From IMG/VR virus record IMGVR_UViG_3300042503_002645, positions 32,001 to 96,000 of that record: DNA of 64,000 nucleotides; one strand, written 5' to 3'. Positions 1,283 to 63,872 of this stretch are shown in pieces. The translations under genes and the position numbers were made by a program. The DNA comes from a virus. Each line of letters begins with the position of its first letter. Positions within the stretch are counted from its first letter, which is position 1. The notes beneath the pieces are model-generated. The model was not told where the DNA came from. It saw only the letters and a program-made list of their open reading frames with translations, and did not search any database.

Positions 1283-1298
1283 GCCGCACGGAGGTGGC
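1283..1298 (+). promoter_or_regulatory. CsrA/Rsm-type operator hairpin over the RBS (GCCGC-ACGGAG-GTGGC)
   Basis: 5-bp stem (one G-U) with an ANGGAN hexaloop containing the SD, 4 nt before GTG 1303. Confidence 0.6.
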
Positions 1299-1302
1299 TG
1301 CT

Positions 1303-3681
1303 GTGTACAACCGTAAGAAGACTGCGTCCTCGACGGCGCACTGGCTCAACGTGGTCCGCTCGCACAGTCGAGCCCAGACAAAGGCTGCCGCTGATTTCGG
1401 CGGCAAGGGCGACTCAACGTCCTTTGAGCAGGCTTTCAGCAACCTCGCCCACGCCTACCTCCGCGATTCCGCGCCCAAGCTTCTCGACCACGAGATTGGC
1501 TTCCAGCTTCTCGACCGTGACCGCGAGAACACCAAGGCGGTCGGCGTTTTCGCCTTCAAGGTCGGGTCGAACTGGCTTTACGCGCCAGTGTTCTTCCTGA
1601 ATGGCGATCTCAAAGGTCACGAGCTCCTGTACATCAAGAACCAGGACGTGTTCGTGCCGCTCAAGGAGAACTGGATCAACTATCTGGTCAACCGGAAGCC
1701 CAACATCCTGGGCAGCTCGGTTGAGCGGAATCTCAGCCAGCTCGGGCAGCGGCAGCCCGACTTCACCCAGCTTTCGCGATCCCCGGCCAAGTTCGGCTCG
1801 GCTAAGCCGACGCTCAGGGAGATGATGGCAGCGGTTTACGGTCCGTTCGCCAAGACCGCCACGATGAACACGGCGCTGGCGTTCCAGGAGGTCGGCCGCG
1901 CGCTGGACTTGCCGAAGTTCCTCAAGGAAGCGCGCCTCACCACGATCGACATGCTCGTGAAGACTTTCCAGGACGCTCCGGCCATGGCCAAGGCGTTCGA
2001 CGAGTTTCACGGCCTGGGCGTAATCAAGGAAGCCATCGCGCTGGCCAAGGAGCGGGAGAGCCGCCCGAAGATCGCCAGCGTGCTGTCGGAAGCCCCGGAA
2101 AAGAGCCCGGCTGCCGCCGGGCTCAAGATCATCAGCTACTCGGTGACGATGCAGACGAAGCTGCCGCCAGAGACGACCGAGGAAGACCAGGAGAAGCTTC
2201 TCCGCGACGGCGTGCTCATCCTCGACCAGCGCGACCGTGACAACGTCTCGATTCCTTACAACATTCAAGTCGACAAGAAGCTCTGGAACCCGACCGAGTC
2301 GGGCCTCTACGACATTCTCGTCAAGCCCGGCAACATCGAGCGGGTCTACATCGCCATGTTCCCGATGGGCGCGGCAAAGCGCTCCGATTTCGTGACCGTG
2401 GTTCGCACTGAGGGCAAGCCCGAGTGGATCAACACCCGGGCCGACCAGGTGTTCGTGGTGGCCTGCCCTACGGATGAAGAAAAGAAAGAGTGGTTCAACG
2501 GTCTGCCCGAGGCAAACAGCCTCCCCAGCAGCGGCCGATACATGCTGATCAGCGAACGCGGTGACGCCACCGTGCCGGTCCGCGTGATTCGCGAGTACGG
2601 CGAGAGCGAGTTCGGCGTGACGAGTTACGAAGTCCACATGGAGGACCACTCGAAGTTCCCGCCGAAGGGACACATCGGCCCGTGCTGCTACACAGACCCG
2701 CTGAACTACGACAAGTGGCGAGACGGCGTGCGCATCCATCTCAACGGCAAAAAGGGCTCCAGCCTGCGCAGCTCGATGGGCGACATCTTCGTTCCCGAGG
2801 GTTTCAAGCTCCTCAAGTGCGCCCCCGGCGAAGACGACGCCGAGACGGCCGAGGACCAGGGCGCATGCGGTTGCGGCTCGAGCGATATGCCGCCGCTGAT
2901 GCCTGGCAACCTGGCGGACGCCCAGCTCGAGCTGATGGGCAAGACGGCCAGCCTCGAGGTTTACCACAACGGCACCGAGGTGGTGATCAACAAGGAGGCA
3001 GCCCGCTCGCCCGTGGTGGCGCTGGTCACCCTCGTCGAGCACCATGGCCTGCGCGAGGACGCGGCACGCGAGATCCTCAAGCAGGCTGCGGCCAAGAGGA
3101 AGTTCGGCTGCCACGTGAAATACGCCGCGCCGTACGGCCCGCCGATGATGGTCAATCAAGGCCCAACGGCTCCGACTGACCCGGGTCCGGTGATGGGCGG
3201 CGAGACGATCATGGGCGCCGATGTTCCCACCCAGATGGGAATCGACATCGGCATGCCGGTGGCGGACATGTCAGCCAGCCTCACCGACCGGCAGATCTAC
3301 AACCCGAACACGCGCCTGGACAAGAAGGACATCAACAACGTCATGCAGGCGGCGCAGTCCGGGCAGAAGGAAGTGTTCGACACGGCGATGATCGGCAGCA
3401 TGCTCCGGGCTGTCCGGGACGACTCGATGGTCGACCGGTACATGGGCGAGCTGACCAACGGGCTCGACAAGCTTGGCCGCATTCTGTTCATGTTCTACTG
3501 GCACGGCGACAAGTTCGCGGACCGTTACGGTAAGTCGGACATGCCCGAGCTCGAGGACTCGCTGCGTAACGCCTTCGAAATGCTTGGGGACGTTATCCTG
3601 TTCCTCAAGCAGAAGACCATCGAGCCGTACCCGGAAGAGGCGGGGGCTGACGCCGACCTCTCCAGTGTGGCCAACGCATAA
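1303..3681 (+). CDS. Large hypothetical protein, probable internal head protein
   Basis: ORF 1276-3681; better start is GTG 1303 after GGAGG. Many K-x-A motifs (KTAS, KAAA, KTAT, KIAS, KEAA, KQAA, KYAA). Lies in the head module. Confidence 0.75.
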   Translation: MYNRKKTASSTAHWLNVVRSHSRAQTKAAADFGGKGDSTSFEQAFSNLAHAYLRDSAPKLLDHEIGFQLLDRDRENTKAVGVFAFKVGSNWLYAPVFFLNGDLKGHELLYIKNQDVFVPLKENWINYLVNRKPNILGSSVERNLSQLGQRQPDFTQLSRSPAKFGSAKPTLREMMAAVYGPFAKTATMNTALAFQEVGRALDLPKFLKEARLTTIDMLVKTFQDAPAMAKAFDEFHGLGVIKEAIALAKERESRPKIASVLSEAPEKSPAAAGLKIISYSVTMQTKLPPETTEEDQEKLLRDGVLILDQRDRDNVSIPYNIQVDKKLWNPTESGLYDILVKPGNIERVYIAMFPMGAAKRSDFVTVVRTEGKPEWINTRADQVFVVACPTDEEKKEWFNGLPEANSLPSSGRYMLISERGDATVPVRVIREYGESEFGVTSYEVHMEDHSKFPPKGHIGPCCYTDPLNYDKWRDGVRIHLNGKKGSSLRSSMGDIFVPEGFKLLKCAPGEDDAETAEDQGACGCGSSDMPPLMPGNLADAQLELMGKTASLEVYHNGTEVVINKEAARSPVVALVTLVEHHGLREDAAREILKQAAAKRKFGCHVKYAAPYGPPMMVNQGPTAPTDPGPVMGGETIMGADVPTQMGIDIGMPVADMSASLTDRQIYNPNTRLDKKDINNVMQAAQSGQKEVFDTAMIGSMLRAVRDDSMVDRYMGELTNGLDKLGRILFMFYWHGDKFADRYGKSDMPELEDSLRNAFEMLGDVILFLKQKTIEPYPEEAGADADLSSVANA

Positions 3682-3690
3682 AGGTGAAAC

Positions 3691-4089
3691 ATGGGACACA
3701 GCACGATTTGGTCCGGCGAGACGGTGTTCGAGGCGACCAGCGGCGCAGAGGCCGTCGTGGCGCTCAAGGTGCCGCATCGCGGCGTGATCCGCGGTTTCAG
3801 CCTGTCGCAAACCAGCGGCGCCAACGCGGGCGCGGCTGCGGCGATCTACACCAGCAAGCAAGACACCACGCCCAACAGCACGCTCCCTGCCGAGGCGTTT
3901 CACATCCTCGACATTACGCTCACGGCGGCGGCCAAGGTTGATAATCACAACCTGAACGTCGCGTACGTGAACCGAGACGGCACGCCGACGAATCCGCAAA
4001 GATATCTTTACTTGAAGATCACCCCTGCAGGTTCGGGCGCCAAGAACTTCGTGTTCTCGATCACCATTGAGACGCCATCGCTGCGCTAA
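3691..4089 (+). CDS. Hypothetical beta-rich protein (132 aa), possibly virion
   Basis: AGGTG RBS, phage-like codon usage, TAATG coupling to the next gene. Confidence 0.7.
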   Translation: MGHSTIWSGETVFEATSGAEAVVALKVPHRGVIRGFSLSQTSGANAGAAAAIYTSKQDTTPNSTLPAEAFHILDITLTAAAKVDNHNLNVAYVNRDGTPTNPQRYLYLKITPAGSGAKNFVFSITIETPSLR

Positions 4090-5018: not shown

Positions 5019-5020
5019 AC

Positions 5021-6949: not shown

Positions 6950-6959
6950 GGGTCTAGGC

Positions 6960-9283: not shown

Positions 9284-9328
9284 ACGGAATCCGCGCGCTA
9301 AAGCGTGTGGGGCCACAAGGAGATGACC

Positions 9329-10669
9329 ATGGCACGGATGCAACGATCGCTTTTTGCGCAGCTCAACGCTTTGGCCGAAGAGATTTCACAGGGCGCTGTG
9401 AAATCTGCCGCCGACAAGAAGGCGGAAGGCCCCACCCCTGCTGATCCCGGTACCTACACTGGCACTTCTTCGCACCCGACCGCCAACGTTGACAACAACG
9501 TGCAAAAGGCGGAGACCGGCGCGCGTGCTTCGGAGTACGAAGCCGACATCAAGAAGCAGCAAGGCGCGCTTGCTGTCGACAACACTCCCGAGATGTCGTA
9601 CGAGGGGCGCCAGGACGAGGTCCAGCAGAACATCGGCACCAACGTCGCCGCCACTGGCGAAGACCCGGCTGCCGAGCGCGACTTCAAGGGCGACAAGGAC
9701 GACCCGGGCACCACGCATCCCGCCAAGACCAACGACGGCGAGAAGTACAGCTCGGTGACGTTCAAGGAAGCCCGCGACCGCGCGGCTGCTCTCGGCAACG
9801 GTATCCTCGCCGAGCTTCTCAACGCCAGCACCAAGCAGGCCGAGATGCCCGCCTTCTTGAAGGACAAGAAGAAGGAAGCTCCGGCCAAGGGTGGGCTCAA
9901 GGGCGACCAGCACAAGCTGGACGTCGATAACGACGGCAAGATCGAGGGCTCCGACCTCAAATCGCTCCGCGCTGGTAAGGAAGCATCCTTCAAGGCTGGG
10001 TATGAGCTCGCTGCGCAGCTCGGTCTGTCGAAGGAAGCCGCCGAGGCGTCTGTCCGCGAGATCTGCGCGAACACGCTCCGCGAGACTGACGAAATGGCCG
10101 ACCTTTTCATCGGTTTTGTCAGCGGCAAGTCAGCAGCGGCTGATCCGGCCGACGAGGCCGAGGAAGGCGAAGACCACTCGGCACCCGGCGATGATGCGTC
10201 CGGCGCGAGCCAGGCGGACGGCGCCGGTGGCGCTCCGGCTGACCTCGCTGGCATGATGGGCGGCGAAAGCGCACCGCCCATGGACGCCGGTGCTGAAGGC
10301 GGCGCGCCTGGCGGCGCATCGGAAGACGAAGCCATGCAAGAACTCGCCATGGCGCTTGAAGAGCTCGGCATTCCGCCCGAAGCGCTTCTCCAGGCTGTGG
10401 CTGGCGGCGCCGGTGGCGCTCCGGCTGATGCTGGCATGGGCGGCATGGGTGGCATGGGTGGCATGGGTGGCGCCCCCGCGGGTCCCGAGATGGCGCCCGA
10501 GATGGCTCCCAAGATGGCCGCGGCAAACGACCTGCGCACGATCGGCACGGCAGTCGTGAATTTCAAGCGCTCCGGCAAGTTCCAGGTCAAGGAAGCTCGC
10601 ACGAAGCGGTCGCGTCAGTTGCGCGACTTCATGAAGCAGCATGTTCTGGAACTCACTCGTTCCCGTTAA
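9329..10669 (+). CDS. Putative capsid scaffold / prohead core protein
   Basis: AAGGAG RBS before ATG 9329. Acidic and Ala/Gly/Met-rich. Contains LKGDQHKLDVDNDGKIEGSDL (EF-hand-like motif), a GGMGGMGGMGG tract and K-x-A sites. Lies between protease and capsid. Confidence 0.65.
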   Translation: MARMQRSLFAQLNALAEEISQGAVKSAADKKAEGPTPADPGTYTGTSSHPTANVDNNVQKAETGARASEYEADIKKQQGALAVDNTPEMSYEGRQDEVQQNIGTNVAATGEDPAAERDFKGDKDDPGTTHPAKTNDGEKYSSVTFKEARDRAAALGNGILAELLNASTKQAEMPAFLKDKKKEAPAKGGLKGDQHKLDVDNDGKIEGSDLKSLRAGKEASFKAGYELAAQLGLSKEAAEASVREICANTLRETDEMADLFIGFVSGKSAAADPADEAEEGEDHSAPGDDASGASQADGAGGAPADLAGMMGGESAPPMDAGAEGGAPGGASEDEAMQELAMALEELGIPPEALLQAVAGGAGGAPADAGMGGMGGMGGMGGAPAGPEMAPEMAPKMAAANDLRTIGTAVVNFKRSGKFQVKEARTKRSRQLRDFMKQHVLELTRSR

Positions 10670-10690
10670 TTCACACGGAGGTTTGAAATC

Positions 10691-11116
10691 ATGCCCGATA
10701 CCAGCAATTCGCTCGTCAAGAACATGATCGACTACATCGGTTATTCCGATGCAGCGATGACCAAGGCAGCGTCGGTTCTCAAGGAACGGGAAGAGCAAGC
10801 TGAGAAGCTGGCTCACCTAATTCCCGAGGCCGTCAAGGTCTGTCTCGAAAACGAGCGAATCGAGCCGCAGCAAAAGGAGGCCCTTGCGAAGGCCCTCGAA
10901 AACCCGGTGCGCGCGGTGGAACTCGTGATCAAGCTCGCGGCGCATCGCAACGCCGCTGAGATGGCACGCCTGGGTACGCCGGTGGCTTCCAAGTCCGCCA
11001 GCTACGACCCGTCGAACAGCCTGACGAGCGGGTATGTGGGCGCTCGTGACGGCAAGCTCAAGGCCTCGGACGCAGCGTTGTTCCGCGGCCTTGGGCTGAA
11101 TGTGCCCACTACCTGA
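10691..11116 (+). CDS. Hypothetical head-module protein (141 aa)
   Basis: GGAGG RBS; KAAS, KLAA and KSAS motifs. Confidence 0.72.
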   Translation: MPDTSNSLVKNMIDYIGYSDAAMTKAASVLKEREEQAEKLAHLIPEAVKVCLENERIEPQQKEALAKALENPVRAVELVIKLAAHRNAAEMARLGTPVASKSASYDPSNSLTSGYVGARDGKLKASDAALFRGLGLNVPTT

Positions 11117-11145
11117 TTTCACTCGGTCCTGTGATTCCAACGAAA

Positions 11146-11161
11146 AAGACATGGAGGTCTT
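11146..11161 (+). promoter_or_regulatory. CsrA/Rsm-type operator hairpin over the RBS (AAGAC-ATGGAG-GTCTT)
   Basis: Perfect 5-bp stem with an ANGGAN loop, 3 nt before ATG 11165. Confidence 0.65.
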
Positions 11162-11164
11162 AAC

Positions 11165-11713
11165 ATGGCAACTGCTCCCAATCTGATCACCGAGAAGGGG
11201 CTCGACGTCAAGAAGGGCTGGTTCCAGATGGCCGCCCTCGACTATGACGCCAAGCTCAGCTCGGCTGTCACTTTCGACGTGCCGCGCGGTCGCGTGGTCC
11301 ACGTCGATTCTTCGGGTGATTTCCGGCCCGGTGCACACAACACCGGCGTGGCGATCTTCTTGCTCAACGGCTCCGCCGAAGCGGACGTCAGCAACCCCGG
11401 CACCACGGCTTCTGGCAACTTCATGCACCGGGCCATCGCCCCGACCGGCAAGATGAGCGGCCTCGTGGCGACTGGCGGTTACGAGATTGCGTCGACCGAG
11501 TTCGACTCGGCGCGCAGCTACACCCCGGGTGATCTTCTCACCGCCGTGGCTTCGAATTCGAACGCCACGACCGGTGGTCGACTCACGAACGAGTCGGTCG
11601 AGCAGTTTGTGACGCCGGTGGTCGGTGTCGTGTCGTCCGGTAAGGCCAAGAACCACAACGGGGTCTACGCGCTGTCCTTCTGGACGGCGTGGCTCCCGGG
11701 CGCGGCCGCCTGA
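11165..11713 (+). CDS. Putative capsid decoration/cement protein (182 aa)
   Basis: Immediately upstream of the major capsid gene, strong RBS, beta-rich (YTPGDLLT...GRLT, VVGVV). Confidence 0.6.
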   Translation: MATAPNLITEKGLDVKKGWFQMAALDYDAKLSSAVTFDVPRGRVVHVDSSGDFRPGAHNTGVAIFLLNGSAEADVSNPGTTASGNFMHRAIAPTGKMSGLVATGGYEIASTEFDSARSYTPGDLLTAVASNSNATTGGRLTNESVEQFVTPVVGVVSSGKAKNHNGVYALSFWTAWLPGAAA

Positions 11714-11733
11714 GTCATTTTCTAGTCACACCC

Positions 11734-11749
11734 GGAACATGGAGGTTCC
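11734..11749 (+). promoter_or_regulatory. CsrA/Rsm-type operator hairpin over the major capsid RBS (GGAAC-ATGGAG-GTTCC)
   Basis: Perfect 5-bp stem with an ANGGAN hexaloop, 4 nt before ATG 11754. Confidence 0.68.
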
Positions 11750-11753
11750 ATAA

Positions 11754-12680
11754 ATGCCCACTCAGCAAGAAATCCAGCTGCTCAACGAGACTCTCTTCGA
11801 GCAGCTCGATACCCCCGGCATGCAGAAGCAGGCCGTTGATGCAGTGAACGACTTCACGCGCACCAAGATGCGTGAAGACGGGTTCTACCGGCGGATCATG
11901 CCGCCGCTCACCATCACCAATGACGAGCTCGACCGCCAGGTCGATACCGACAAGCCGGTGAAGGTGGTCGACAAGGAACCCGATTCTCCGGCGGCCGTGT
12001 CGCTTCCGTTTGCGACGCTCCCGATCAACTTCTACATCCGTGGCCCGCGCTACCGCGTCATGTTTGACCGGATCGTGTCGCCCCGCGCTGTGAAGGACGT
12101 CGACGAGCTCCGCACCTACGTGATCGACATCCGGCAGGTCCTTTCCGACAACATGATCAAGGACATGTTGGCGGAAGAGGACTCCAAGTTCATCGCCGCA
12201 TTCAACGCCGTCCTCCCGACTCCGGGTGTGGCGAACGTTGCGTCGGGCGAAGTTCAGTACGAGGAGATCCACGGCGGCATCACGCGTGAGACGATCGTCG
12301 ACGCGCTGAAGGTCATGCCGCGGACGCCCTCGCACTTCGAGGTCGAGACCTGCCTGGTGAACAACATCACCATCAAGGAGCTGCTGAAGTTCGGCCGCGA
12401 CGAGATGGGCGGTGACTTCTCCCAGGACATCATCAAGAACGGCTGGGCGGAGACCAACTTCCTCAACTGCCGCTGGATTGTCACGATCAAGCGGAACTTG
12501 GTCCCCGACGATTCGATGTTCATGTTCGCGTCGCCGAAGTTCATCGGCAAGAACTACGAGCTCGAACCGACCACGATGTACATCCGTCGTGAGGCGTTCA
12601 TGCTCGAGTACTTCGCGTACAACACGCAGGGTGGCTCGTTCGGTCACACGAACGGTCTCGCCCGCGTCGATTTCAAGTGA
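11754..12680 (+). CDS. Major capsid protein (probable HK97 fold, 308 aa)
   Basis: Follows protease, scaffold and decoration genes. Strongly biased codon usage. REDGFYRRIMPP E-loop-like segment and C-terminal GLARVDF. Followed by a stem-loop. Confidence 0.75.
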   Translation: MPTQQEIQLLNETLFEQLDTPGMQKQAVDAVNDFTRTKMREDGFYRRIMPPLTITNDELDRQVDTDKPVKVVDKEPDSPAAVSLPFATLPINFYIRGPRYRVMFDRIVSPRAVKDVDELRTYVIDIRQVLSDNMIKDMLAEEDSKFIAAFNAVLPTPGVANVASGEVQYEEIHGGITRETIVDALKVMPRTPSHFEVETCLVNNITIKELLKFGRDEMGGDFSQDIIKNGWAETNFLNCRWIVTIKRNLVPDDSMFMFASPKFIGKNYELEPTTMYIRREAFMLEYFAYNTQGGSFGHTNGLARVDFK

Positions 12681-12698
12681 TGATGTGAAACTTGGGAC

Positions 12699-12731
12699 GG
12701 GAGGCGGGCGCGTTGTAAACGCCCGCCTCCC
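12699..12731 (+). terminator. 12-bp GC-rich stem-loop after the capsid gene (attenuator or mRNA stabiliser; no U-tract)
   Basis: GGGAGGCGGGCG-cgttgtaaa-CGCCCGCCTCCC. Confidence 0.6.
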
Positions 12732-12754
12732 AACCCATCAAGAGGAGAGCACTC

Positions 12755-13150
12755 ATGGATCAGGTTAAGGTTGCGGCGGATCAGGCTTACGGGACGATCG
12801 TTTCGGAGCTTGCCGCGCCGTATTTCTTCGAGAAGCTCGCTGCCCACGGCATTCAGCCGCGGTCCGAGAAGGAAGCCGCTGACATGTGGGCTGCTGCCAC
12901 GAAGCTCCACGTGCTCTTTGCAGCGGAACAGGAAAAGGTCGCGGCTGCAAGCGCTACGAACATGGCGGCTGTTAACAGCCGTCTGGACGAGATGCTCGCT
13001 GCCGCTGGTTACGGCGAAGCTCCCGGAGCCGAAAAGTCGGCATCCGCGTTCGTCCACGCCGGAAACATCGCTGCCGAACAGCCCGAAATCGCCAAGGCCG
13101 TTCTGACGCTGCAGGCTGCTGCGGCGGCGGCGATGCAGAACGCCGAGTGA
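12755..13150 (+). CDS. Hypothetical head-module protein (131 aa)
   Basis: GAGGAG RBS; KVAA, EKLAA, KEAA and EKSAS motifs. Confidence 0.75.
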   Translation: MDQVKVAADQAYGTIVSELAAPYFFEKLAAHGIQPRSEKEAADMWAAATKLHVLFAAEQEKVAAASATNMAAVNSRLDEMLAAAGYGEAPGAEKSASAFVHAGNIAAEQPEIAKAVLTLQAAAAAAMQNAE

Positions 13151-13168
13151 ACAGAAAGAGAGTGAAAC

Positions 13169-13534
13169 ATGCCATACGCCCCTGTGACCACCGGCCTCTA
13201 TACGACGGTTGAAAACACCTCCGGCTCTGACAAGGTGTTCGGCTTTCTCGGCACGCACGGCAAGCGACTCGAGGCCAATGAGACCTACACGGTCCCTGGC
13301 GACCTCGTTTCGAAGCTCGGCGCGCAGCGGAGCCAGCGAAAGTTCAAGGCGTTGGAGTCGGCGCTGCAGACTGGCGATCTCAAGATCGTCAGCTCGCCCG
13401 CCGTCTACCTCTACGACGCAACGGACGAAGTGACCCGCGAACTCAGCATCGACAACGGCGTGATCGGCACGGTCGACCCCCAGTGGGATCCGACCGGCAC
13501 CGGCACGAGCGACTTCGTCGACAACGACGGCTGA
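13169..13534 (+). CDS. Hypothetical virion protein (121 aa)
   Basis: Clean ORF with structural-gene codon bias. Confidence 0.72.
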   Translation: MPYAPVTTGLYTTVENTSGSDKVFGFLGTHGKRLEANETYTVPGDLVSKLGAQRSQRKFKALESALQTGDLKIVSSPAVYLYDATDEVTRELSIDNGVIGTVDPQWDPTGTGTSDFVDNDG

Positions 13535-13563
13535 TCGCGCGTTTCAACCATCGGGACGTTCCA

Positions 13564-13599
13564 GAGGAAGGCTGGCTGCGCAAGCGGCCAGCCTTCTTC
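13564..13599 (+). terminator. Stem-loop with a GCAA (GNRA) tetraloop ending the head operon
   Basis: GAGGAAGGCTGGCTGC-GCAA-GCGGCCAGCCTTCTTC. Confidence 0.65.
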
Positions 13600-13615
13600 G
13601 CTATGAGGACCGAAA

Positions 13616-13672
13616 ATGCGCACGCTCATCACCCTTGTCGTTTTCCTGTACGCCGCCTTCTACGCGAGGTGA
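13616..13672 (+). CDS. Putative 18-aa hydrophobic micropeptide MRTLITLVVFLYAAFYAR
   Basis: GAGG upstream. Fills the gap between the stem-loop and the next gene, and its end overlaps that gene's RBS. Confidence 0.35.
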   Translation: MRTLITLVVFLYAAFYAR

Positions 13673-13675
13673 GTC

Positions 13676-14692
13676 ATGGTCGTCATCGCCACGCCGAGCC
13701 CGTATCCGCAGGTACCGGTCCCGGACCCGCAGATCTCCAACGGGCAGCTTAACCCGGTTCCTTGCGCCACGCAGAACGTCATCAGCGCGCCCGTGTCGAC
13801 AGTGAACGGCGCCCCAGTCTACGGCCGGATGCGCGCCGTCACGTTCACGCAAGGCCAGTGCGGCGTCGTCGAGTGGCAGCTACACGACAAGGACGGGCAT
13901 CCGGTCAACCTGGAAAGCTGCGGGCTCACTGACGGCTCGCTGAGCGTGCCGGACGCGGAGTTTAGGGTCGTGCTGCGCCTCAAAGAGCAGCTCAGCATCG
14001 GAAACGCCAGGCGACCCATTGAAGTCGAGGCGCAGGTCATAGACGCGTCCGAGGGGCGTGTACAGGCCGAGATCACCAAGGGAATGACCGACCTGCCGGG
14101 TGTCTATTACGGCGAAATGGCCCTGGTGAGCGCCCAGGCCGAGGCAGCCGGACAGCCCTGTGTGATCTTCGGCAACACCTTTTCGGTGATCGTCAACCGC
14201 GGCACCTTCGGCCCGCTGGGGCAGGAAGGTGGTCCGCCGTCGATCGCCGAGATCCGCCTCCATCTTCGCGACAGCGCGCCCGGGGAGAGCTTCCTGCTCG
14301 ACAACCTGATGTTCGACGACGCGGAGATCGCGCTGGCCATCGCGCGGCCGATCATGTACTGGAACGAAACCCCGCCGCCGCTCGACGAGGTGTACAACAC
14401 CCAGAACTTCCCCTTCCGGTACCACTGGCTTGAGGGAATCTGCGCAAACTTGTTCCTGATGGTCGCCGAGCAGTTCCGCCGCAACGATTTCCAGTATTCG
14501 GCTGCGGGCCTGCAGATCAATGACCAGAACAAGGCCCAGGCCTACGAGCAGGCCGGGCAGACGCGTTGGCAGGCTTACCGGGAGTGGGTTCGGGCCACCA
14601 AGGCCACGATCAACCTCGAGAGTTGCTACGGCGAGGTCACGAGTACCTACAAGTACTCGGCCTACACCAGCGGCGCCCGGATGCGCTACTAA
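13676..14692 (+). CDS. Putative head-tail adaptor/neck protein (338 aa)
   Basis: Post-capsid position. N-terminal BppU-like beta domain (GRVQAEIT...PGVYYGE) and C-terminal FDDAEIALAI...WNETPP adaptor-like helices. Confidence 0.55.
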   Translation: MVVIATPSPYPQVPVPDPQISNGQLNPVPCATQNVISAPVSTVNGAPVYGRMRAVTFTQGQCGVVEWQLHDKDGHPVNLESCGLTDGSLSVPDAEFRVVLRLKEQLSIGNARRPIEVEAQVIDASEGRVQAEITKGMTDLPGVYYGEMALVSAQAEAAGQPCVIFGNTFSVIVNRGTFGPLGQEGGPPSIAEIRLHLRDSAPGESFLLDNLMFDDAEIALAIARPIMYWNETPPPLDEVYNTQNFPFRYHWLEGICANLFLMVAEQFRRNDFQYSAAGLQINDQNKAQAYEQAGQTRWQAYREWVRATKATINLESCYGEVTSTYKYSAYTSGARMRY

Positions 14693-14696
14693 AAAG

Positions 14697-14722
14697 TGCC
14701 AGAAACGCGGGCATATTAAGTG
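14697..14722 (+). promoter_or_regulatory. Putative phage promoter motif, copy 1 (TGCCAGAAACGCGGGCATATTAAGTG)
   Basis: 21/26 identical to 54073-54098. Both copies are intergenic and precede small non-structural genes. Confidence 0.6.
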
Positions 14723-14872
14723 CCCACTGTTTTACCGTCAGGGGCCTTCCGCTTCGCATTTTGGCGCGTTAGATTCACGCCATTCTGTGAAATCGGAGGT
14801 TAGATATCTTTGACGCTCCGTGGTAGGCGTCGCGCGCTGGGCGCTCCCCAGCCCCCTGTGAAGGAGGCATCC

Positions 14873-15157
14873 GTGCCTGCGGTGCTCATAAACAAGGAGA
14901 CTGCGCTGGCCGTCAAGGCGGCGCGGCGCATCAACGAGTCGACAAAAGGCGAACTCGTGACGATAGCTCGACAAAAGGCCGCGACCGACACGCTCGAGGA
15001 GGTAGGCGCGGGTCTGGCGGGCGCCATTCGCCTCGTTTACGCGCCAGCGGTCGTGCTCGCCCCGCCGCCGATCGTGACGATGCTGAATGCGTTCATGGCA
15101 AAAGTCGATTGGGAGATTGTCGCCGAGAAGCTCGTCATTCGCCCGGAGGACAACTGA
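14873..15157 (+). CDS. Small hypothetical protein with a C-terminal VDWxxVA motif
   Basis: AAGGAGG RBS before GTG 14873; contains KVDWEIVAEKL. Confidence 0.65.
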   Translation: MPAVLINKETALAVKAARRINESTKGELVTIARQKAATDTLEEVGAGLAGAIRLVYAPAVVLAPPPIVTMLNAFMAKVDWEIVAEKLVIRPEDN

Positions 15158-15435
15158 TGGCCGCAGCTAAGCTAAACGAGATGTCGATGATTGTCCTGAA
15201 CTGGATCCGCGAGATGGACGAGGAGCCGGGCGGCACACTCCGCGAGATCGCTGAAAGCGCGGGCGTGACCGAAGACCCCGAACGGCTGGGGCAAAGAATG
15301 AAAGAAGCCCTCATGCTGTTCAATTTGCCGTTTCAGGCGATTGCCCCGGCGTTTCTCAAAGACGCCACCGCGTACTGCCTTGAGCAGGTCGATTGGACGG
15401 GCGTGGCGCGCCAGCGCATGGCGGAGACCGCCTGA
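15157..15435 (+). CDS. Small hypothetical protein, apparent paralog of the preceding gene
   Basis: TGATG coupling, GGAGG RBS; contains QVDWTGVARQRM. Confidence 0.68.
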   Translation: MAAAKLNEMSMIVLNWIREMDEEPGGTLREIAESAGVTEDPERLGQRMKEALMLFNLPFQAIAPAFLKDATAYCLEQVDWTGVARQRMAETA

Positions 15436-15456
15436 TTGCTCGCCCTATCACGGAAA

Positions 15457-15497
15457 GCGCTGGCGCCGCCCTTCGGGGCGGTGTCAGCGTCTTTCTT
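15457..15497 (+). terminator. Rho-independent terminator with a cUUCGg tetraloop
   Basis: GCGCTGGCGCCGCCC-TTCG-GGGCGGTGTCAGCGT followed by CTTTCTT. Confidence 0.75.
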
Positions 15498-15529
15498 AGA
15501 TATCAGCGCTCCCCGGATACAATAATGCT

Positions 15530-16786: not shown

Positions 16787-16825
16787 CGCCGCCCGATAGC
16801 GCCTGCCGAGTTAACCGGGTATCGT

Positions 16826-16990
16826 ATGGATAAAGACAAAGCGAAAAAGCTCCGCCTGCAGCCGCCACGGATGGCGATGCACCATAAGCCGATACGCATG
16901 CTTCCGGTCATGAAGTTGCCGGAACCCGACGCAGCAAAGGATGGCTTGCGTGAGTACTTGCGACGACACGCCAAACCCGCCGGAAATTGA
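16826..16990 (+). CDS. Small basic hypothetical protein (54 aa, MDKDKAKKLRLQPPRM...)
   Basis: Fills the intergenic gap; below the ORF-track length cutoff. Confidence 0.35.
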   Translation: MDKDKAKKLRLQPPRMAMHHKPIRMLPVMKLPEPDAAKDGLREYLRRHAKPAGN

Positions 16991-17663: not shown

Positions 17664-17751
17664 GGAAAATTCACACACCGTGTCGTGACAACTGATTTTT
17701 TTTGATCACGTTGCGTGGGTTATACTGAGCCCGTCGCACCGTTCACGACAT

Positions 17752-17769
17752 TTAGGCATGGAGGCCTGA
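17752..17769 (+). promoter_or_regulatory. CsrA/Rsm-type operator hairpin over the tail sheath RBS (TTAGGC-ATGGAG-GCCTGA)
   Basis: 6-bp stem (one G-U) with an ANGGAN loop, 3 nt before ATG 17773. Confidence 0.65.
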
Positions 17770-17772
17770 CGC

Positions 17773-20595: not shown

Positions 20596-20616
20596 GAATT
20601 TTAGGAGAACACACAC

Positions 20617-37728: not shown

Positions 37729-37762
37729 TCGCTCAATCACGCGGACGTGTGAAAGTCTGGGA

Positions 37763-37776
37763 GGACAGGGATGTCC
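37763..37776 (+). promoter_or_regulatory. CsrA/Rsm-type hairpin spanning the fibre start codon (GGAC-AGGGAT-GTCC)
   Basis: Perfect 4-bp stem; the ANGGAU loop includes the AT of ATG 37771. Confidence 0.55.
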
Positions 37777-50028: not shown

Positions 50029-50099
50029 TGTGTCGCAAATTGTATTTTCTAGGTCCCGCGATACACTGACGGTTCACGCGCATCAAGGAGGCGTTGACC

Positions 50100-50627
50100 A
50101 TGCGTTGTCGTTATGCAGAAGTGCCGTGCGCCAGCGGGGGCGGTTTTATTTGTTTGCGTTGCGTGAACTGCAAAAAGCAGCTGAGCGTGGCCCGCAACCT
50201 TCGCGACAAGCTTGATGCGACTACGGCTGTTTTGCCAGACTGCGCCGCCACTACGGATCTTGGCGCGGCCGCCGTTGCGGAGCTTGAAGCGGCAACTGCC
50301 GCGGAGGCCCTGCCATTCGCCGCTTTCCCGCCGTTACCGCCCGCGCGGATCGTTTGGGATCCGACCGGCGCTGGGACGCAACTCAAGTTCTTGCTGTCGA
50401 AGCTGGGCATCAAATCAACCGAGAATTGTTCGTGTAATGCCCGCGCACGCGCCATGAACGAGCGCGGTATCGAGTGGTGCGAGCAGAATGTTGGCGAAAT
50501 CGTCGGCTGGCTCAAAGAAGAGGCCACACGGCGCAACTTGCCGTTCCTCGCGTATCCCACGAAGCTGCTTGTTCAGCGCGCTATCAAGATCGCCAAGCGG
50601 CAGCGAGACAAGAAAGAGCCGCAATAG
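50100..50627 (+). CDS. Small Cys-containing protein (C.C..R...MN..G..WC motif)
   Basis: AAGGAGG RBS; CLRCVNC and NCSCNARARAMNERGIEWCEQN. Confidence 0.68.
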   Translation: MRCRYAEVPCASGGGFICLRCVNCKKQLSVARNLRDKLDATTAVLPDCAATTDLGAAAVAELEAATAAEALPFAAFPPLPPARIVWDPTGAGTQLKFLLSKLGIKSTENCSCNARARAMNERGIEWCEQNVGEIVGWLKEEATRRNLPFLAYPTKLLVQRAIKIAKRQRDKKEPQ

Positions 50628-53184: not shown

Positions 53185-53199
53185 CATGCCTCTGTGAAA

Positions 53200-53213
53200 T
53201 GCCAGGGAGGGCA
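53200..53213 (+). promoter_or_regulatory. CsrA/Rsm-type operator hairpin over the RBS (TGCC-AGGGAG-GGCA)
   Basis: Perfect 4-bp stem with an ANGGAN loop, 2 nt before ATG 53216. Confidence 0.55.
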
Positions 53214-53215
53214 GC

Positions 53216-53758
53216 ATGAGTTGCGAACAGTCTTCTTCGTTTGGCGGCGCGATTGAGCTTAACGAAGCAATCGGGATCAACTTTTACGCACCGGATGCGC
53301 CGGTCGAGCCGCCCAGCACAAGCGGCCGCCGCGTCCGCCTCACCTGGAGCGTGAGTCGGTACAACTTCCACGGCACCGACGGCATCCGCGTGCGCATCGA
53401 GGCGGCGGACGCCGAGTTGATGTCGGACAAGGTGTTCGCCTACCTGCTTCTGCCGATGAAGCCCGCGGCTGGTGAACGCGAAGGCGCGTTCAGCCATGTC
53501 TGCTCGCCAACGGACCTCGCCGAGTACCCCGAGGACGAGCCGATTCCCGGCGTCCGCCCGGAGTTCTTTCGGCTCAACTACGTCGACGTGCAGCTGCGCT
53601 CGCGCTCTGAAGCCAAGGCGTTCATTCAGGACGTCACCGATGACGTGCAGCGACTCAAGACTACGTTGGACATCATGGACACGCTGCAGACGGGCGGCTC
53701 GGTGTGGATCGGCGACGAGCCAGAGCCGGAAGTTTCCTCCTCGGAGAGTATCGGATGA
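53216..53758 (+). CDS. Hypothetical protein (180 aa), possibly virion
   Basis: GGAGG RBS and clean ORF. Confidence 0.68.
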   Translation: MSCEQSSSFGGAIELNEAIGINFYAPDAPVEPPSTSGRRVRLTWSVSRYNFHGTDGIRVRIEAADAELMSDKVFAYLLLPMKPAAGEREGAFSHVCSPTDLAEYPEDEPIPGVRPEFFRLNYVDVQLRSRSEAKAFIQDVTDDVQRLKTTLDIMDTLQTGGSVWIGDEPEPEVSSSESIG

Positions 53759-54057: not shown

Positions 54058-54072
54058 CAACCAGCTAAATTT

Positions 54073-54098: not shown

Positions 54099-54143
54099 TA
54101 CCACCAACATTGGTTTTGGCGGTAGTCACCACGGAGGTTTGTC

Positions 54144-54515
54144 ATGGCTCTTGCCACCTGGAACGAGTTGGAGACGATCGAGGGGATCATCGGAGGGCTC
54201 GTTACGCCCGAGGCGCTGCCGTTCGCGCAGCTCTCAACCGACGAGCAGGCTGCCGTGATCAACGAGATCGATGACGTCATTGAGGACGTCGCGCCCAGCG
54301 TCACCGAGCGGTACGCCGAGTTGGACAACCCGGCACAGCGCAACGACCGCCTCCGCGCCTATCGGGAGGAGCTGCTGCGCCGCAAAGATCCCTCGGTGCG
54401 CGACGCCTGGGCGTCGTACTTCGACGCCTTGATGGGCGTCTGCCTTCGGAACGCCTCCGCTCCCCGGAACTACTCGATCGACGAGTCCGGGGTAGTGGTG
54501 ACGTTCGCCGCCTGA
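54144..54515 (+). CDS. Hypothetical protein (123 aa)
   Basis: GGAGG RBS. Confidence 0.7.
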   Translation: MALATWNELETIEGIIGGLVTPEALPFAQLSTDEQAAVINEIDDVIEDVAPSVTERYAELDNPAQRNDRLRAYREELLRRKDPSVRDAWASYFDALMGVCLRNASAPRNYSIDESGVVVTFAA

Positions 54516-55414: not shown

Positions 55415-55880
55415 GGAAAACACCTCCGAGAGTGAATTGGCCGTAACGGTGGCCAGTCTAACGCCGATTCTGAAGCTCGACAAGCTGCAGCTGCGCATGC
55501 TTACGGGCGGCTACAGTGATCTTGAGCCGCTGCCCAAATCACGTGTCGGCATACTGCTGCTGGCCGACCTGCTTGAACGCCTGGCGTTTTTGACGCCGAG
55601 TCAACGGCAGACAGTTCTTGCGCACTACAAGCCCGACCTACCGGCCACCTTCCCCGTGTGGGAAACGTTGGCGTTCGCCGACGGAAACTGGTGTACCTGG
55701 ACCGGCCAAACCGGCTGGCTCGACCTCACCACGGGCGACGTCGTCGAAGCCCTCCCCGCCGCTCCGGTGGAGACCATTGGGTACAATCTGGTAACGCGCT
55801 ACGTGCGAGCAATGGCGCAGCTTAGGAAAAGGACTTCCGATGGCGAAAAACATCCTGCAGGAAGCATGGACCAGCCGTGA
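55413..55880 (+). CDS. Hypothetical protein (start uncertain)
   Basis: ORF 55308-55880 with in-frame ATGs at 55404, 55413 and 55498. Confidence 0.5.
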   Translation: MENTSESELAVTVASLTPILKLDKLQLRMLTGGYSDLEPLPKSRVGILLLADLLERLAFLTPSQRQTVLAHYKPDLPATFPVWETLAFADGNWCTWTGQTGWLDLTTGDVVEALPAAPVETIGYNLVTRYVRAMAQLRKRTSDGEKHPAGSMDQP

Positions 55881-56514
55881 AACCTTCGCGTCGGTGCTGC
55901 TGACGCTATTCCTGGACCGGTTCGGCACGGAAGCGCTCGAGTGGGAAGCTTCCACGATCGCCCTGGAAATCGAGGAGGAGTTCGACGTCGATCTGTCGCG
56001 CCTGAGCTTCGACAAGCTTATGGTCGCCGTGCAGATCCTGACGACGGATCGTTTCCACAAGAGCCTTCCAGACTTCATCGAGTTCTGTAACGTCCTGAAC
56101 GGGGACATCTACGACCCCAACACGTTCGACCCGGCCGACGCCGAAGACGTGGCCTGGGGCATCACCGAGGCGCTGCTGATCGCGCCCCCGGACGACGATG
56201 ACCCTGAGCCGTTCACGGCCGAAATTCGGGCCTACATCGGCGCCGTCCTCGACCAAGAGGGGATCATCAACGCGCCGGACATTTTGCGCATTGCTTTGCG
56301 CAAGGCCCGAGTCTCGCCCGCGATCGGTGATTTCTCTGACGACCCGGAAATGTTCTCGGCGATCTACGAAGTCGAGGCTGGGAAGACAGAAGAAATCAAC
56401 CAGACCATCCGCACTAAGACGCAGATTCTTGCGGCCCAGCTTGCCGCACTGCACCTGACCAATGGAAACACTCAGTCTGTAGCCAAGTTGCTGGGCGATT
56501 CTGCGCAGCGCTAG
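55840..56514 (+). CDS. Acidic hypothetical protein (224 aa)
   Basis: AAGGA RBS and strong coding bias. Confidence 0.72.
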   Translation: MAKNILQEAWTSRETFASVLLTLFLDRFGTEALEWEASTIALEIEEEFDVDLSRLSFDKLMVAVQILTTDRFHKSLPDFIEFCNVLNGDIYDPNTFDPADAEDVAWGITEALLIAPPDDDDPEPFTAEIRAYIGAVLDQEGIINAPDILRIALRKARVSPAIGDFSDDPEMFSAIYEVEAGKTEEINQTIRTKTQILAAQLAALHLTNGNTQSVAKLLGDSAQR

Positions 56515-56529
56515 GCAGAAAGGATTCCC

Positions 56530-56724
56530 GTGCTCGTTCTCTCGCGCAAGCGGAACGAAAAGATCAACATCGGCAAAAATATCAAAATCACAGTCGTCGA
56601 GATTTTGCACGACCGCGTTCGACTGGGGATCGAGGCGCCCGCGGAACTGACAATCGTCCGCGAAGAGATAGCCGACAGCTGGCGCAAGGGCAAAGAAAAG
56701 GCCAACGGCAATGGGGTGGAATGA
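56530..56724 (+). CDS. csrA: Carbon storage regulator CsrA/RsmA-family RNA-binding protein
   Basis: MLVLSRKRNEKINIG...IKITVVEI..DRVRLGIEAP....IVREEI. Confidence 0.93.
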   Translation: MLVLSRKRNEKINIGKNIKITVVEILHDRVRLGIEAPAELTIVREEIADSWRKGKEKANGNGVE

Positions 56725-56989
56725 CCGCCTCGCCGAAGATCCCTACGAACAATCTGATGAGCAGCGCCAGGAGTATCTCGACTGGCAGGAATTCCAGCAC
56801 TATCTTGCGTCCATAGAAGACGCTGCTCTTGAGCCGCCTGCTCCGGCTCCGCCATGTCCCGACCGCCTGGCCATTGATATCTTTGGCCTGGCCGGGTTCC
56901 CTACCTCAGAAACACCATGCAACGCACCAGAGAAGAAAGAGCCAAAGTCACCCGGCAGCGGATGCTCGCAGAGGTCAGGAAAGACCTAA
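56711..56989 (+). CDS. Hypothetical protein (92 aa)
   Basis: Overlaps the csrA end. Confidence 0.45.
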   Translation: MGWNDRLAEDPYEQSDEQRQEYLDWQEFQHYLASIEDAALEPPAPAPPCPDRLAIDIFGLAGFPTSETPCNAPEKKEPKSPGSGCSQRSGKT

Positions 56990-57210
56990 GACACATCTGT
57001 GACGAGACGTTCTCGTACAAGATGCACTATCTCAACAACGGCCAGACGGCGTTGATCCGGCGCGAGGCGTACCGCCTGCGGCTCCTCATCGAGGATTGCT
57101 GCGCGGCCGAAGCCCCGCCGCCCATCCCGTCGAAGAAGAAGCGAACCGGCCCACTTCTCAAAAAAGTGAAGCACCGCGGCAGCAAAGCAAAAGATCAAGC
57201 GCCGCCGTAA
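56917..57210 (+). CDS. Small basic hypothetical protein (97 aa)
   Basis: Its stop abuts the stop of the convergent gene. Confidence 0.5.
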   Translation: MQRTREERAKVTRQRMLAEVRKDLRHICDETFSYKMHYLNNGQTALIRREAYRLRLLIEDCCAAEAPPPIPSKKKRTGPLLKKVKHRGSKAKDQAPP

Positions 57211-61777: not shown

Positions 61778-61782
61778 ACAAC

Positions 61783-63331: not shown

Positions 63332-63332
63332 T

Positions 63333-63656
63333 ATGGAAACGGTCGAGTGCGACGAGTACCAGGTCTCCGCACGCGTGACGCTGCGCAAGGGCGACCTGTT
63401 CCGGGCCACCGGCGGGCCGTACTACATCGTGCGCGACGAGACCGGCAAGAAGATCAAGTCGTCCATGGCGGCCAAAGGCCCGTTCAGATTCGTTTCGTAC
63501 TGCGAGCGCGGTCGGCGAAAATGGATCGTGGCTTACTCCACCAAAGAGGGCGGCTATACAACGCTGCCCCTCACGCGGTGGCGCACAGTGGACTTAGACA
63601 ACTTCGTGAATCGCCCCTACAAGATTCTGGGCAAGAAGCGCCCCAAGAAGAGGTGA
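63333..63656 (+). CDS. Basic hypothetical protein (107 aa)
   Basis: Clean, closely coupled ORF. Confidence 0.65.
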   Translation: METVECDEYQVSARVTLRKGDLFRATGGPYYIVRDETGKKIKSSMAAKGPFRFVSYCERGRRKWIVAYSTKEGGYTTLPLTRWRTVDLDNFVNRPYKILGKKRPKKR

Positions 63657-63659
63657 CCC

Positions 63660-63824
63660 ATGAGTCGAACCAGAAAGCGACCCTACACCCGGTCCAAACG
63701 TTTTGACACTAGCTGCCGTTGTCATGGCGGCTGCCCGTGGTGCCGCAACAACCGGCTCCACAGCGACATCAGTCGTCGGACTGCTGCCGACACTGCCATC
63801 CGTGAGTACCGCTACGCAAGCTGA
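63660..63824 (+). CDS. Small basic Cys/His protein (54 aa; SCRCHGGCPWC)
   Basis: GAGGTG RBS; MSRTRKRPYTRSKRFDTSCRCHGGCPWCRNNRLH. Confidence 0.6.
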   Translation: MSRTRKRPYTRSKRFDTSCRCHGGCPWCRNNRLHSDISRRTAADTAIREYRYAS

Positions 63825-63854
63825 GGTTCGCGCAGCGCGGTTCGATAAAATGGA

Positions 63855-63872
63855 TGTCGCACGGAGGCGGCA
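63855..63872 (+). promoter_or_regulatory. CsrA/Rsm-type operator hairpin over the RBS (TGTCGC-ACGGAG-GCGGCA)
   Basis: 6-bp stem (one G-U) with an ANGGAN loop, 2 nt before ATG 63875. Confidence 0.62.

Follow-up and report, generated by a model that had tools for sequence, protein, structure and literature searches.

Conserved GGA-loop hairpins at gene starts of an uncultured freshwater jumbo phage, and their likeness to CsrA operators

Well-studied targets of the bacterial regulator CsrA usually have at least two sites per leader that are bridged by one dimer, but this is not obligatory. In Bacillus subtilis, CsrA acts on a Shine-Dalgarno (SD) hairpin of the hag mRNA, which encodes a massively produced, self-assembling subunit, as part of a CsrA-FliW-flagellin partner switch. 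Among phages, the MS2 coat protein at the replicase hairpin and T4 RegA are cases of a phage protein acting at a small hairpin or ribosome-binding site of other phage genes, and RegB cleaves early mRNAs at GGAG. SD hairpins of the CsrA/RsmA/RsmE type, for example that of RsmE-hcnA (PDB 2jpp), have an A-N-GGA-N hexaloop closed by a C-G pair and placed over the SD. SELEX yielded the CsrA consensus RUACARGGAUGU, in which ACA and GGA do not vary and the GGA sits in a hairpin loop (PMC4347634). CsrA homologues encoded by phages are known (Campa et al. 2021, PMC8450108; Sobrero and Valverde 2020, PMC7366521; PMC11879866), and the role proposed for them in the relevant passages is manipulation of the host, e.g., of CRISPR-Cas (PMC8450108, PMC11879866). 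Knock-down of one of them, gp28 of PTXU04, gave small plaques; according to the same passages, the role of csrA in a phage life cycle had not been tested before (PMC11879866). Here we describe a set of CsrA-like hairpins on a virus's own genes. They were found in and around a 64,000-nt window, bases 32001 to 96000 of a 119,044-bp IMG/VR record (IMGVR_UViG_3300042503_002645; CheckV 58% complete), which comes from an uncultured freshwater jumbo phage of ∼200 kb and which carries a csrA gene.

Across the whole contig, 13 hairpins at 12 gene starts overlap the SD or the start codon. These hairpins are a real, conserved, and covarying RNA motif. We put at roughly 0.55 the probability that they are operators read by a CsrA-family protein, whose binding to them is predicted from sequence. 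The sites and their genes are listed below in window coordinates, and those outside the window, along with the peptidase leader, in contig coordinates.

1283..1298, + strand: GCCGC-ACGGAG-GTGGC, 5 bp with one G-U pair, over the SD of a 792-aa open reading frame (ORF), 1303-3681, with a GTG start at 1303
11146..11161, + strand: AAGAC-ATGGAG-GTCTT, over the SD of a 182-aa gene, 11165-11713
11734..11749, + strand: GGAAC-ATGGAG-GTTCC, over the SD of the major capsid gene, 11754-12680
17752..17769, + strand: TTAGGC-ATGGAG-GCCTGA, 6 bp with one U-G pair, over the SD of the tail-sheath gene, 17773-20595
37737..37752, + strand: TCACGC-GGAC-GTGTGA, a hairpin whose tetraloop contains GGA, ∼26 nt upstream of the one at 37763 that holds the start codon
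37763..37776, + strand: GGAC-AGGGAT-GTCC, holding the start codon of a 630-aa ORF, 37771-39663
53200..53213, + strand: TGCC-AGGGAG-GGCA, over the SD of a 180-aa ORF, 53216-53758
55825..55838, + strand: GGAA-AAGGAC-TTCC, closed by A-U, over the SD of a 224-aa gene, 55840-56514, directly upstream of csrA
56530..56724, + strand: csrA, 64 aa, GTG start, matching PF02599 profile positions 1-50 of 53
63855..63872, + strand: TGTCGC-ACGGAG-GCGGCA, 6 bp with one U-G pair, over the SD of a 147-aa ORF whose start is at 63875 and whose end lies beyond the window (contig 95875-96318)
Contig 496: a 708-aa ORF with a hairpin
Contig 10958: a dCMP deaminase gene with a hairpin (Pfam E 2.3e-11, PHROG E 5.8e-20)
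Contig 20160-20195: the leader of a PG_binding_1 + Peptidase_M10 gene (contig 20180-20989; Pfam E 4.4e-18 and 5e-9), with TCGC-AAGGAC-GCGA on the SD and, 20 nt apart from it, ATGGC-AAGGAT-GCCAT from the AUG (20180-20195)
Contig 30382: a 242-aa ORF with a hairpin at contig 30365, directly after a gene with an FDGD motif

The seven hairpins at 1283, 11146, 11734, 17752, 37763, 53200, and 63855 had been pointed out in an earlier note on this DNA and read exactly as written there; those at 37737 and 55825 were absent from its list. At six of the seven, the hairpin lies 2 to 5 nt before the start codon. The exception is 37763, where loop positions 5 and 6 plus the closing G form the AUG and the SD, GGGAGGA, is just 5′ of the hairpin. 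The four weaker sites also proposed there are present, but their stems are of only 0 to 2 bp.

9316: weak site, CAAGGAGA
10674..10681, + strand: weak site, CACGGAGG, with a 2-bp hexaloop stem, upstream of a 141-aa ORF, 10691-11116
50084..50091, + strand: CAAGGAGG, the SD of ORF 50100-50627, motif only with a 1-bp stem
54130..54137, + strand: CACGGAGG, the SD of ORF 54144-54515, motif only with a 1-bp stem

Orthologues of the ORF at 10691 have 4-bp stems in two related records, GATC-ATGGAG-GATT in G031 and GATC-ACGGAG-GATC in G035, and the motif at 50084 is not kept in the relative G002.

The hairpins were found in excess of chance by several measures. First, A.GGA. hexamers flanked by at least 4 pairs numbered 25 of 392 on the + strand of the 119-kb contig, 13 of them at gene starts, vs 2 of 156 on the − strand; hexamers of any kind are so flanked in 2.1% of cases (2489 of 119,039). 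Second, before any curation, stems of at least 4 pairs flanked 10 of 89 SD-like NNGGAG sequences compared to 9 of 356 other NNGGAG sequences of the contig (Fisher p 0.0012). Third, 40 of these 89 automatic rows were removed by hand as internal in-frame starts, and the 49 curated gene-start SDs were compared with a null that preserves the SD, as the earlier note had advised: NNGGAG and its 5′ flank were held fixed, and the 3′ flanks were permuted among the gene-start sites 20,000 times. Stems of at least 4 pairs occurred at 8 of the 49 SDs against a permutation mean of 1.26, and none of the 20,000 permutations reached 8, which confirms the excess. Stems of at least 5 pairs occurred at 7 (permutation mean 0.60), and in the C-ANGGAG-G subset 8 of 13 sites had stems of at least 4 pairs (mean 2.0; 2 of 20,000 permutations reached 8). 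Finally, CANGGAGG is in mild excess in the window, with 15 copies found vs 8.8 expected (6 of 100 shuffles reached 15); 13 of the 15 are on the + strand, and 10 of those 13 lie directly 5′ of start codons. A strong GGAGG SD is present in only some genes, and C-A-N precedes most such SDs.

Comparison with relatives showed that the pairing is maintained while the stem sequences change. Searching IMG/VR with the capsid yielded 65 related loci (56 to 99% identity), and four orthologous sites were aligned, each with 0/500 shuffles reaching the observed covariation.

A1, capsid: 39 distinct rows, 86.7% of cells paired, 31 double-change cells, covariation 0.430 vs 0.136 shuffled
A4, cement-like gene: 37 distinct rows, 84.3% paired, 23 double-change cells, covariation 0.369 vs 0.152
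A2, sheath: 38 distinct rows, 66.2% paired, 35 double-change cells, covariation 0.395 vs 0.189 (upper estimates)
A3, 630-aa gene: 23 distinct rows, 93.5% paired, 16 double-change cells, covariation 0.627 vs 0.180 (upper estimates)

The values for A2 and A3 are upper estimates because in A2 and the distant A3 rows the anchor was whichever GGA of a short region (38 nt for A2) had the best stem, which favors pairing; the A1 anchors were set by SD position and not by the stem. Slid controls scored below the true alignment position (in A1, all of them did). The check for stem covariation among related phages that the earlier note had suggested thus came out positive at all four sites. A good example is the capsid site, where the loop A-Y-GGA-G and the closing C-G pair are constant across relatives and stem changes are compensated, with GGAAC/GTTCC, AGAAC/GTTCT, AAGAC/GTCTT, GCAC/GTGC, CGATC/GATCG, and TTC/GAA among the stems. 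Likewise, the G002 orthologue of the 63875 ORF has TGCTGC-ACGGAG-GTGGCG, with compensated changes; that of the 1303 ORF has the same hairpin and also a GTG start, and both peptidase-leader hairpins are kept in G002. At the 53200 site, G002 has a shifted loop and has lost the stem. Because the stems covary and because the G-U pairs, at 1283, 17752, and 63855, are possible on the sense strand only, the element is one of RNA rather than DNA.

Two other features were noted near these sites among the relatives. AU-rich repeats of the TAACTAA type, with stops in all frames, lie ∼50 nt upstream of the capsid start in several of them (L019-L021, locus ∼2940-2985), and many (L189-L211) have a conserved CCGCACACA motif ∼25 nt 5′ of the sheath hairpin.

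The geometry of the loops is what most closely recalls CsrA. Every loop geometry around SD-type GGA was scanned at 667 sites in four genomes with csrA and at 582 sites in three genomes without it. In the former, stems of at least 4 pairs peak where 2 nt precede and 1 nt follows the GGA (61 of 667 sites); other geometries have 4 to 22 sites, except for 38 at 3 nt before and 2 nt after, most of which are taken to be hairpins of the first kind whose closing pair has opened. Of the 61 hexaloops, 51 begin with A and 43 are closed by C-G. The table for the csrA-less genomes is flat, with 13 of 582 sites at the hexaloop geometry (Fisher p 1e-7 for 61/667 vs 13/582), of which 3 are A-first and 1 is closed by C-G. 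At the capsid site, AAC-A-U-GGA-G-GUU, columns A8, C9, A10, G12-G13-A14, G16, and U17 are conserved in relatives. GGA in a short hairpin loop and the consensus (A)CA-N-GGA-N-G(U) are both found, and the AC/GU flanks fit the consensus as well. Judged by sequence and predicted folding, the hairpins appear to have the architecture of a high-affinity CsrA/RsmE site and to share with CsrA operators every feature of sequence and structure that can be tested in silico, except site multiplicity.

The GGA loop is also conserved off the SD. At the start-codon hairpin at 37763, orthologues have GGAC-ACGGAT-GTCC, GCC-AAGGAT-GGC, GGTC-AAGGAT-GGCC, and GAGGGGC-ACGGAT-GTCCTTT, and no start-codon hairpin of this type was found in the three outgroup genomes. 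Further examples are the peptidase hairpin after the AUG and the upstream hairpin at 37737, where close relatives have TTCACAC-GGAT-GTGTGAA and two have GGGC-ACGGAC-GCTT. At these sites GGA does not serve as the SD, and simple presentation of the SD cannot explain their conserved loops. The 37737 hairpin would be the second site of a dual-site leader.

The csrA gene at 56530 reported in the earlier note was confirmed by Pfam (PF02599, 79.7 bits vs a cut-off of 27, E 1.6e-22; 73.3 bits in the profile search of the whole contig). By phmmer, its product matches 10 distinct CsrA/Rsm chains, the best being RsmE (2jpp, E 6.9e-9). The two align over residues 1-52, from MLVLSRK... to ...IVREEI. The phage protein is identical to RsmE at L2, L4, R6, R44, E46, and I47, which we take to be RNA-binding positions, and the gene looks intact. 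Of 50 related records, 27 matched PF02599; among the 20 with a completeness of 90% or more, 17 did, and the other three, which lack csrA, have the most distant capsids (56 to 60% identity). In three distant csrA-bearing relatives the SD of csrA itself is in a hairpin (ATCGA-AAGGAG-TCGAT, TGGA-AAGGAG-TCCA, and CAGG-AAGGAG-CCTG), which suggests that csrA may be autoregulated there. The csrA SD of the window phage has only a 3-bp GAA-AGGA-TTC, and it is the adjoining upstream gene, at 55840, that has the hairpin.

The CsrA proteins of the clade vary in form. In G035 (L073, − strand, locus 1162-1653), a 163-aa ORF has two tandem CsrA domains, a "dimer" in one chain, and its SD lies in ATCGA-AAGGAG-TCGAT; in other relatives (L075-L078, L084, L085), CsrA is extended at its C terminus by a Ser-, Thr-, and Pro-rich tail of ∼50 aa. 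A tblastn search of GenBank phages with the window CsrA gave no match at E 1e-3, and one with the more canonical CsrA of G040 gave 95 phage records at E ≤0.1.

The presence of csrA was then compared with that of SD hairpins over whole records by an automatic rule (NNGGAG, followed within 3 to 11 nt by an ATG that opens at least 60 codons near an upstream stop). The counts below are of SDs with stems of at least 4 pairs.

G031, with csrA: 5/105, background 25/1435
G035, with csrA: 19/65, background 87/2444
G002, with csrA: 9/74, background 17/910
G040, with csrA: 12/106, background 55/1987
Own contig, with csrA: 7/45, background 21/797
G047, outgroup, csrA-less: 2/109, background 25/1403
G048, outgroup, csrA-less: 2/122, background 38/1870
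G050, outgroup, csrA-less: 3/95, background 47/1945
G016, in the clade, csrA not found: 6/51, background 9/543
G034, in the clade, csrA not found: 6/70, background 36/1227
G042, in the clade, csrA not found: 3/70, background 61/2532

Pooled, 45 of 350 SDs have hairpins in G031, G035, G002, and G040 compared to 7 of 326 in the three outgroup genomes (p 6e-8), and CANGGANG is found at 54 of the 350 vs 14 of the 326. The cement, capsid, sheath, and 630-aa gene hairpins are kept in the csrA-bearing genomes and absent from the outgroup. The difference cannot be put down to GC content, because the outgroup genome G050 has 66% GC and the hairpin-bearing G016 has 52.5%. The expectation in the earlier note that relatives lacking csrA would have fewer hairpins holds for the three outgroup genomes but not for G016, and dependence on the phage csrA is accordingly seen as co-occurrence at the level of the clade that is not strict, given G015 and G016.

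The genes that carry hairpins are of more than one kind. The product of 11754-12680 is the major capsid protein by tblastn matches to proteins annotated as such in jumbo phages, namely in Salmonella phage Arash (28% identity, E 1e-22), and 17773-20595 has a weak match to the PHROG tail sheath (E 1.6e-6). The 11165-11713 product is a probable cement or decoration protein, a lead only, from an Atlas score of 0.97 to clusters in which 13 to 24% of the members have Phage_cement. The label "fibre" that the earlier note gave to 37771-39663 is unsupported, its Atlas scores being below 0.9. Searches of Pfam and PHROGs gave no match for most hairpin genes. The PG_binding_1 + Peptidase_M10 protein is a candidate endolysin, a lysis role that is inferred from its domains only. 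Thus, the regulon of structural genes proposed at first does not hold as such, because the set also includes the dCMP deaminase and the peptidoglycan peptidase and so is not virion-only. Nor are all virion genes in it: the gene in the tube position at 20617, next after the sheath gene, has no hairpin.

Set beside the systems described at the outset, the hairpins resemble the SD hairpins of CsrA, RsmA, and RsmE in the A-N-GGA-N hexaloop, the C-G closure, and the position over the SD. They differ from the bacterial targets in that they are on the virus's own genes, including those of the most abundant virion proteins, and in that there is mostly one site per leader. Capsid and sheath are mass-produced structural subunits with SD hairpins, which makes the CsrA-FliW-hag system of B. 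subtilis a plausible analogy. Compared to MS2, RegA, and RegB, the protein families and motifs are different, and nothing here indicates a nuclease. The csrA gene is phage-borne like those described in the cited passages on phage CsrAs; what sets this clade apart from them is candidate operators on the phage's own genes. A full-text literature search brought up no account of phage genes with CsrA-type operators. CsrA is reported to repress cel, the lysis gene of ColE7 (PMC2896534), which likewise has a lysis-type function in a mobile element; here the PG_binding + M10 gene has a leader with two GGA hairpins, and unlike here, the element in that account is a plasmid and the reader is the host CsrA.

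If the hairpins are CsrA operators, a CsrA dimer would bind the A-N-GGA-N loops on the SD or the AUG in competition with the 30S subunit and would lower or delay translation of a defined set of phage mRNAs, of about a dozen genes. The phage CsrA (56530-56724) would read the hairpins where it is present, and the host CsrA probably would too. The tightest control would be expected at the dual-site leaders, which belong to the peptidase gene and the 630-aa gene, and relief might come simply from late mRNAs outnumbering CsrA. That the phage CsrA is the main reader is a tentative proposal, to which we give somewhat less than even odds; that the host CsrA alone is the reader seems distinctly unlikely to us. 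The more far-reaching version is a private circuit throughout the clade, in which the phage CsrA would read 10 to 20 covarying operators on its own mRNAs and would govern the supply of virion proteins and the timing of lysis, in the way that flagellin is governed by CsrA. We regard this circuit as possible, at less than an even chance, and the same applies to its putative targets: the genes of the capsid, cement, and sheath proteins, of a fibre-like protein, and of a lysis-type peptidase, as well as csrA itself in some members. Binding, repression, the identity of the CsrA reader, and a role in timing are what we infer; the late-gene timer or link to host carbon status in the earlier note is pure inference.

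Several findings weigh against recognition by CsrA, and in particular by the phage CsrA. First, part of the motif match comes for free, since an SD of GGAGG itself supplies GGA-N-G. Second, the start-site hairpins are modest when folded in isolation (−0.8 to −7.4 kcal/mol; that at 1283, −6.6 kcal/mol), and the minimum-free-energy (MFE) fold of −40..+20 contains just 9 of the 13. Those missing from it include the hairpin at 53200, and the upstream hairpin at 37737 is likewise missing from the MFE fold of its region. Third, there is a single site in 10 of the 12 hairpin genes; a second GGA hairpin 20 to 26 nt away is found in the other two, the peptidase and the 630-aa gene, and for these two the layout is that of classic CsrA targets with dual sites. 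Second sites are not enriched, with a mean of 1.58 extra GGA within −70..+60 in hairpin genes vs 1.27 in other SD genes. Fourth, no antagonist was found. The search for GGA-rich sponge RNAs suggested in the earlier note was negative: a search of the window at Rfam gathering thresholds gave 0 hits, the densest GGA-motif windows (contig 422-480 and 30046-30217) are both coding, the second of them in the FDGD-motif gene, clusters of GGA-loop hairpins are alike on both strands, and the part of the phage missing from the record was screened through the relative G002 only. FliW (PF02623), which belongs to the hag system, was found in 0 of the 5 clade genomes searched.

G015 and G016 (capsid 95% identical) fit poorly with the phage CsrA as the reader. 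Here, csrA is missing exactly between the orthologues of 55840-56514 and 56711-56989, and PF02599 has no match in 123 kb and 168 kb of these two records. G016 nevertheless has hairpins at 6 of 51 SDs against a background of 9 of 543 (p 0.0008), with those of capsid, cement, and sheath kept and a sheath stem of 8 bp. Phage csrA is therefore not needed to maintain the hairpins, unless there is a copy in the unsampled ∼18%; the distance from csrA to the capsid gene is 45 to 50 kb in G002, G009, G021, G024, and G031. Within the clade, the relation is loose, as the csrA-bearing G031 has only 5/105 and G034 and G042, where csrA was not found, have 6/70 and 3/70. In G042, the csrA neighborhood of the G040 type is rearranged and without csrA. 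Furthermore, the contrast with the outgroup amounts to about one phylogenetic event. Four cultured phages with csrA show no enrichment either: in the first 50 kb of each record, stems of at least 4 pairs were found at 1/21 NNGGAG SDs in F116, 0/11 in Bcep22, 0/13 in Vibrio D65, and 2/24 in Dartukuta, which is not independent of F116 because of its similar layout. The simplest way to reconcile these findings with operators for CsrA is that CsrA-family proteins in general read the hairpins and that the host CsrA can serve after loss of the phage gene.

The persistence of hairpins in G016 is also a point in favor of a second explanation, that they act in cis with no protein reader. They would set the initiation rates of highly expressed genes, keep the SD from long-range structure, or stabilize processed 5′ ends, and csrA would be a coincidence, aimed at host mRNAs. 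The predominance of single sites, the csrA-bearing phages elsewhere that lack such hairpins, and the host manipulation proposed for phage CsrA in the cited passages (PMC8450108, PMC11879866) all agree with it, and the AU-rich runs of the TAACTAA type before the capsid hairpin could conceivably be RNase E-type sites. However, a cis-acting element does not predict so sharp a hexaloop geometry, with A first in 51 and C-G closure in 43 of 61 loops, or the conservation of A-N-GGA loops off the SD (the 37763 orthologues, the post-AUG peptidase hairpin, and 37737). It also leaves the outgroup genomes, one of them at 66% GC, without hairpins. For these reasons, we consider it unlikely.

Another clade-specific RNA-binding protein, comparable in its action to the MS2 coat protein or T4 RegA, could also read the hairpins, whose likeness to CsrA sites would then be convergent. 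Such a protein would be consistent with the hairpins of G016, most of the phage genes have no known family, and 2 of the 37 ingroup-core ORFs are absent from the outgroup (one of 1285 aa and one of 155 aa, the latter being the orthologue of 32864-33355). Neither of these, nor any other candidate seen, has a known RNA-binding domain, while the motif fits the known specificity of CsrA position by position and CsrA is encoded in 17 of 20 near-complete relatives. We give little credence to this explanation. As a separate observation, the 155-aa orthologue (L155, − strand), which has no tblastn match in the three outgroup genomes, has an SD hairpin of its own in G002, AGCC-AAGGAG-GGTT.

Lastly, chance palindromes or DNA-level signals (phage RNA polymerase promoters, operators of DNA-binding proteins, or terminators) are hardly tenable: the capsid site AACA-N6-TT does resemble what is presumably the AR9 late-promoter consensus (AACA-N6-TW), but the permutation tests and the strand asymmetry (25/392 vs 2/156) speak against chance, and a promoter or DNA operator, which would keep its sequence, is disfavored by stems that differ between sites and covary and by G-U pairs found only on the sense RNA. 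Terminators were rejected for the absence of a U-run 3′ of the stems. RNase III sites were also rejected, as RNase III needs longer stems than the 4 to 6 bp present here.

The phage and its relatives have the following setting. GC content is ∼62%, and the + strand carries nearly all genes of the window. Many of the related loci are on contigs of ∼200 kb with terminal repeats, and the group is therefore seen as a clade of uncultured jumbo phages. DNA sequencing runs that match the stretch 10600-13000 are mainly labelled lake water or freshwater, and 11000-19000 has no DNA match of near identity among GenBank phages. Four RNA-library runs, read as contigs at a likeness of at least 85%, had 44, 3, 12, and 1 contigs of relatives on 10600-13000, mostly in the capsid ORF, and in X20 one contig of 978 nt spans upstream sequence into the capsid gene; no conclusion is drawn from these numbers because contigs cannot show starts, ends, or single transcripts and because DNA was possibly present. 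As for the host, a relative's capsid gene, 68% identical, is on a contig binned with a Nannocystaceae metagenome-assembled genome (MAG), two fragments are in a further MAG, and CsrA is present in 25 of 31 Nannocystaceae genomes; no conclusion on the host was drawn, since binning of a phage contig is weak evidence and comes here from a relative.

A few further observations concern neighboring genes and other phages. Directly ahead of the hairpin at contig 30365 lies the end of a gene whose product contains ...FDGDAMQYH... (contig ∼30085), a sequence like the catalytic motif of the RNA polymerase β′ subunit. The ORFs at 47671-48531 and 48544-50028 have an odd GC content by codon position (0.26/0.76/0.79 in the first), unlike all their neighbors, which suggests low-complexity, possibly Ser-rich proteins. 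In G015 and G016 (L274/L275, syntenic with window 55840-57210), the next gene (MGWNDRL...) directly follows the upstream gene. Among the cultured phages, a CsrA-like gene lies within the head or structural module of Bcep22 (31170-31364, L272), F116 (33363-33569, L172), and Dartukuta (25862-26056, L310). That of Bcep22 is immediately upstream of the major head gene, and another csrA is present in the early region of both F116 and Dartukuta. F116 also has a perfect hairpin, GTTCGC-ACGGAC-GCGAAC, at 32716-32733, inside the gene that precedes its CsrA-like gene.

For work on csrA in phages, this clade provides some twelve well-defined and conserved candidate operators, which lie on those of the phage's own genes that are most highly expressed. 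The csrA-less lineage of G015 and G016, together with the host CsrA, is a natural experiment on who reads the sites. If the hairpins are indeed operators for CsrA, a double-stranded DNA phage would regulate the synthesis of its own virions posttranscriptionally with a borrowed bacterial global regulator, and the motif would be a signature by which regulons of this kind could be recognized in the sequences of metagenomic phages. This would then be the first virus that uses CsrA on its own rather than on host genes.

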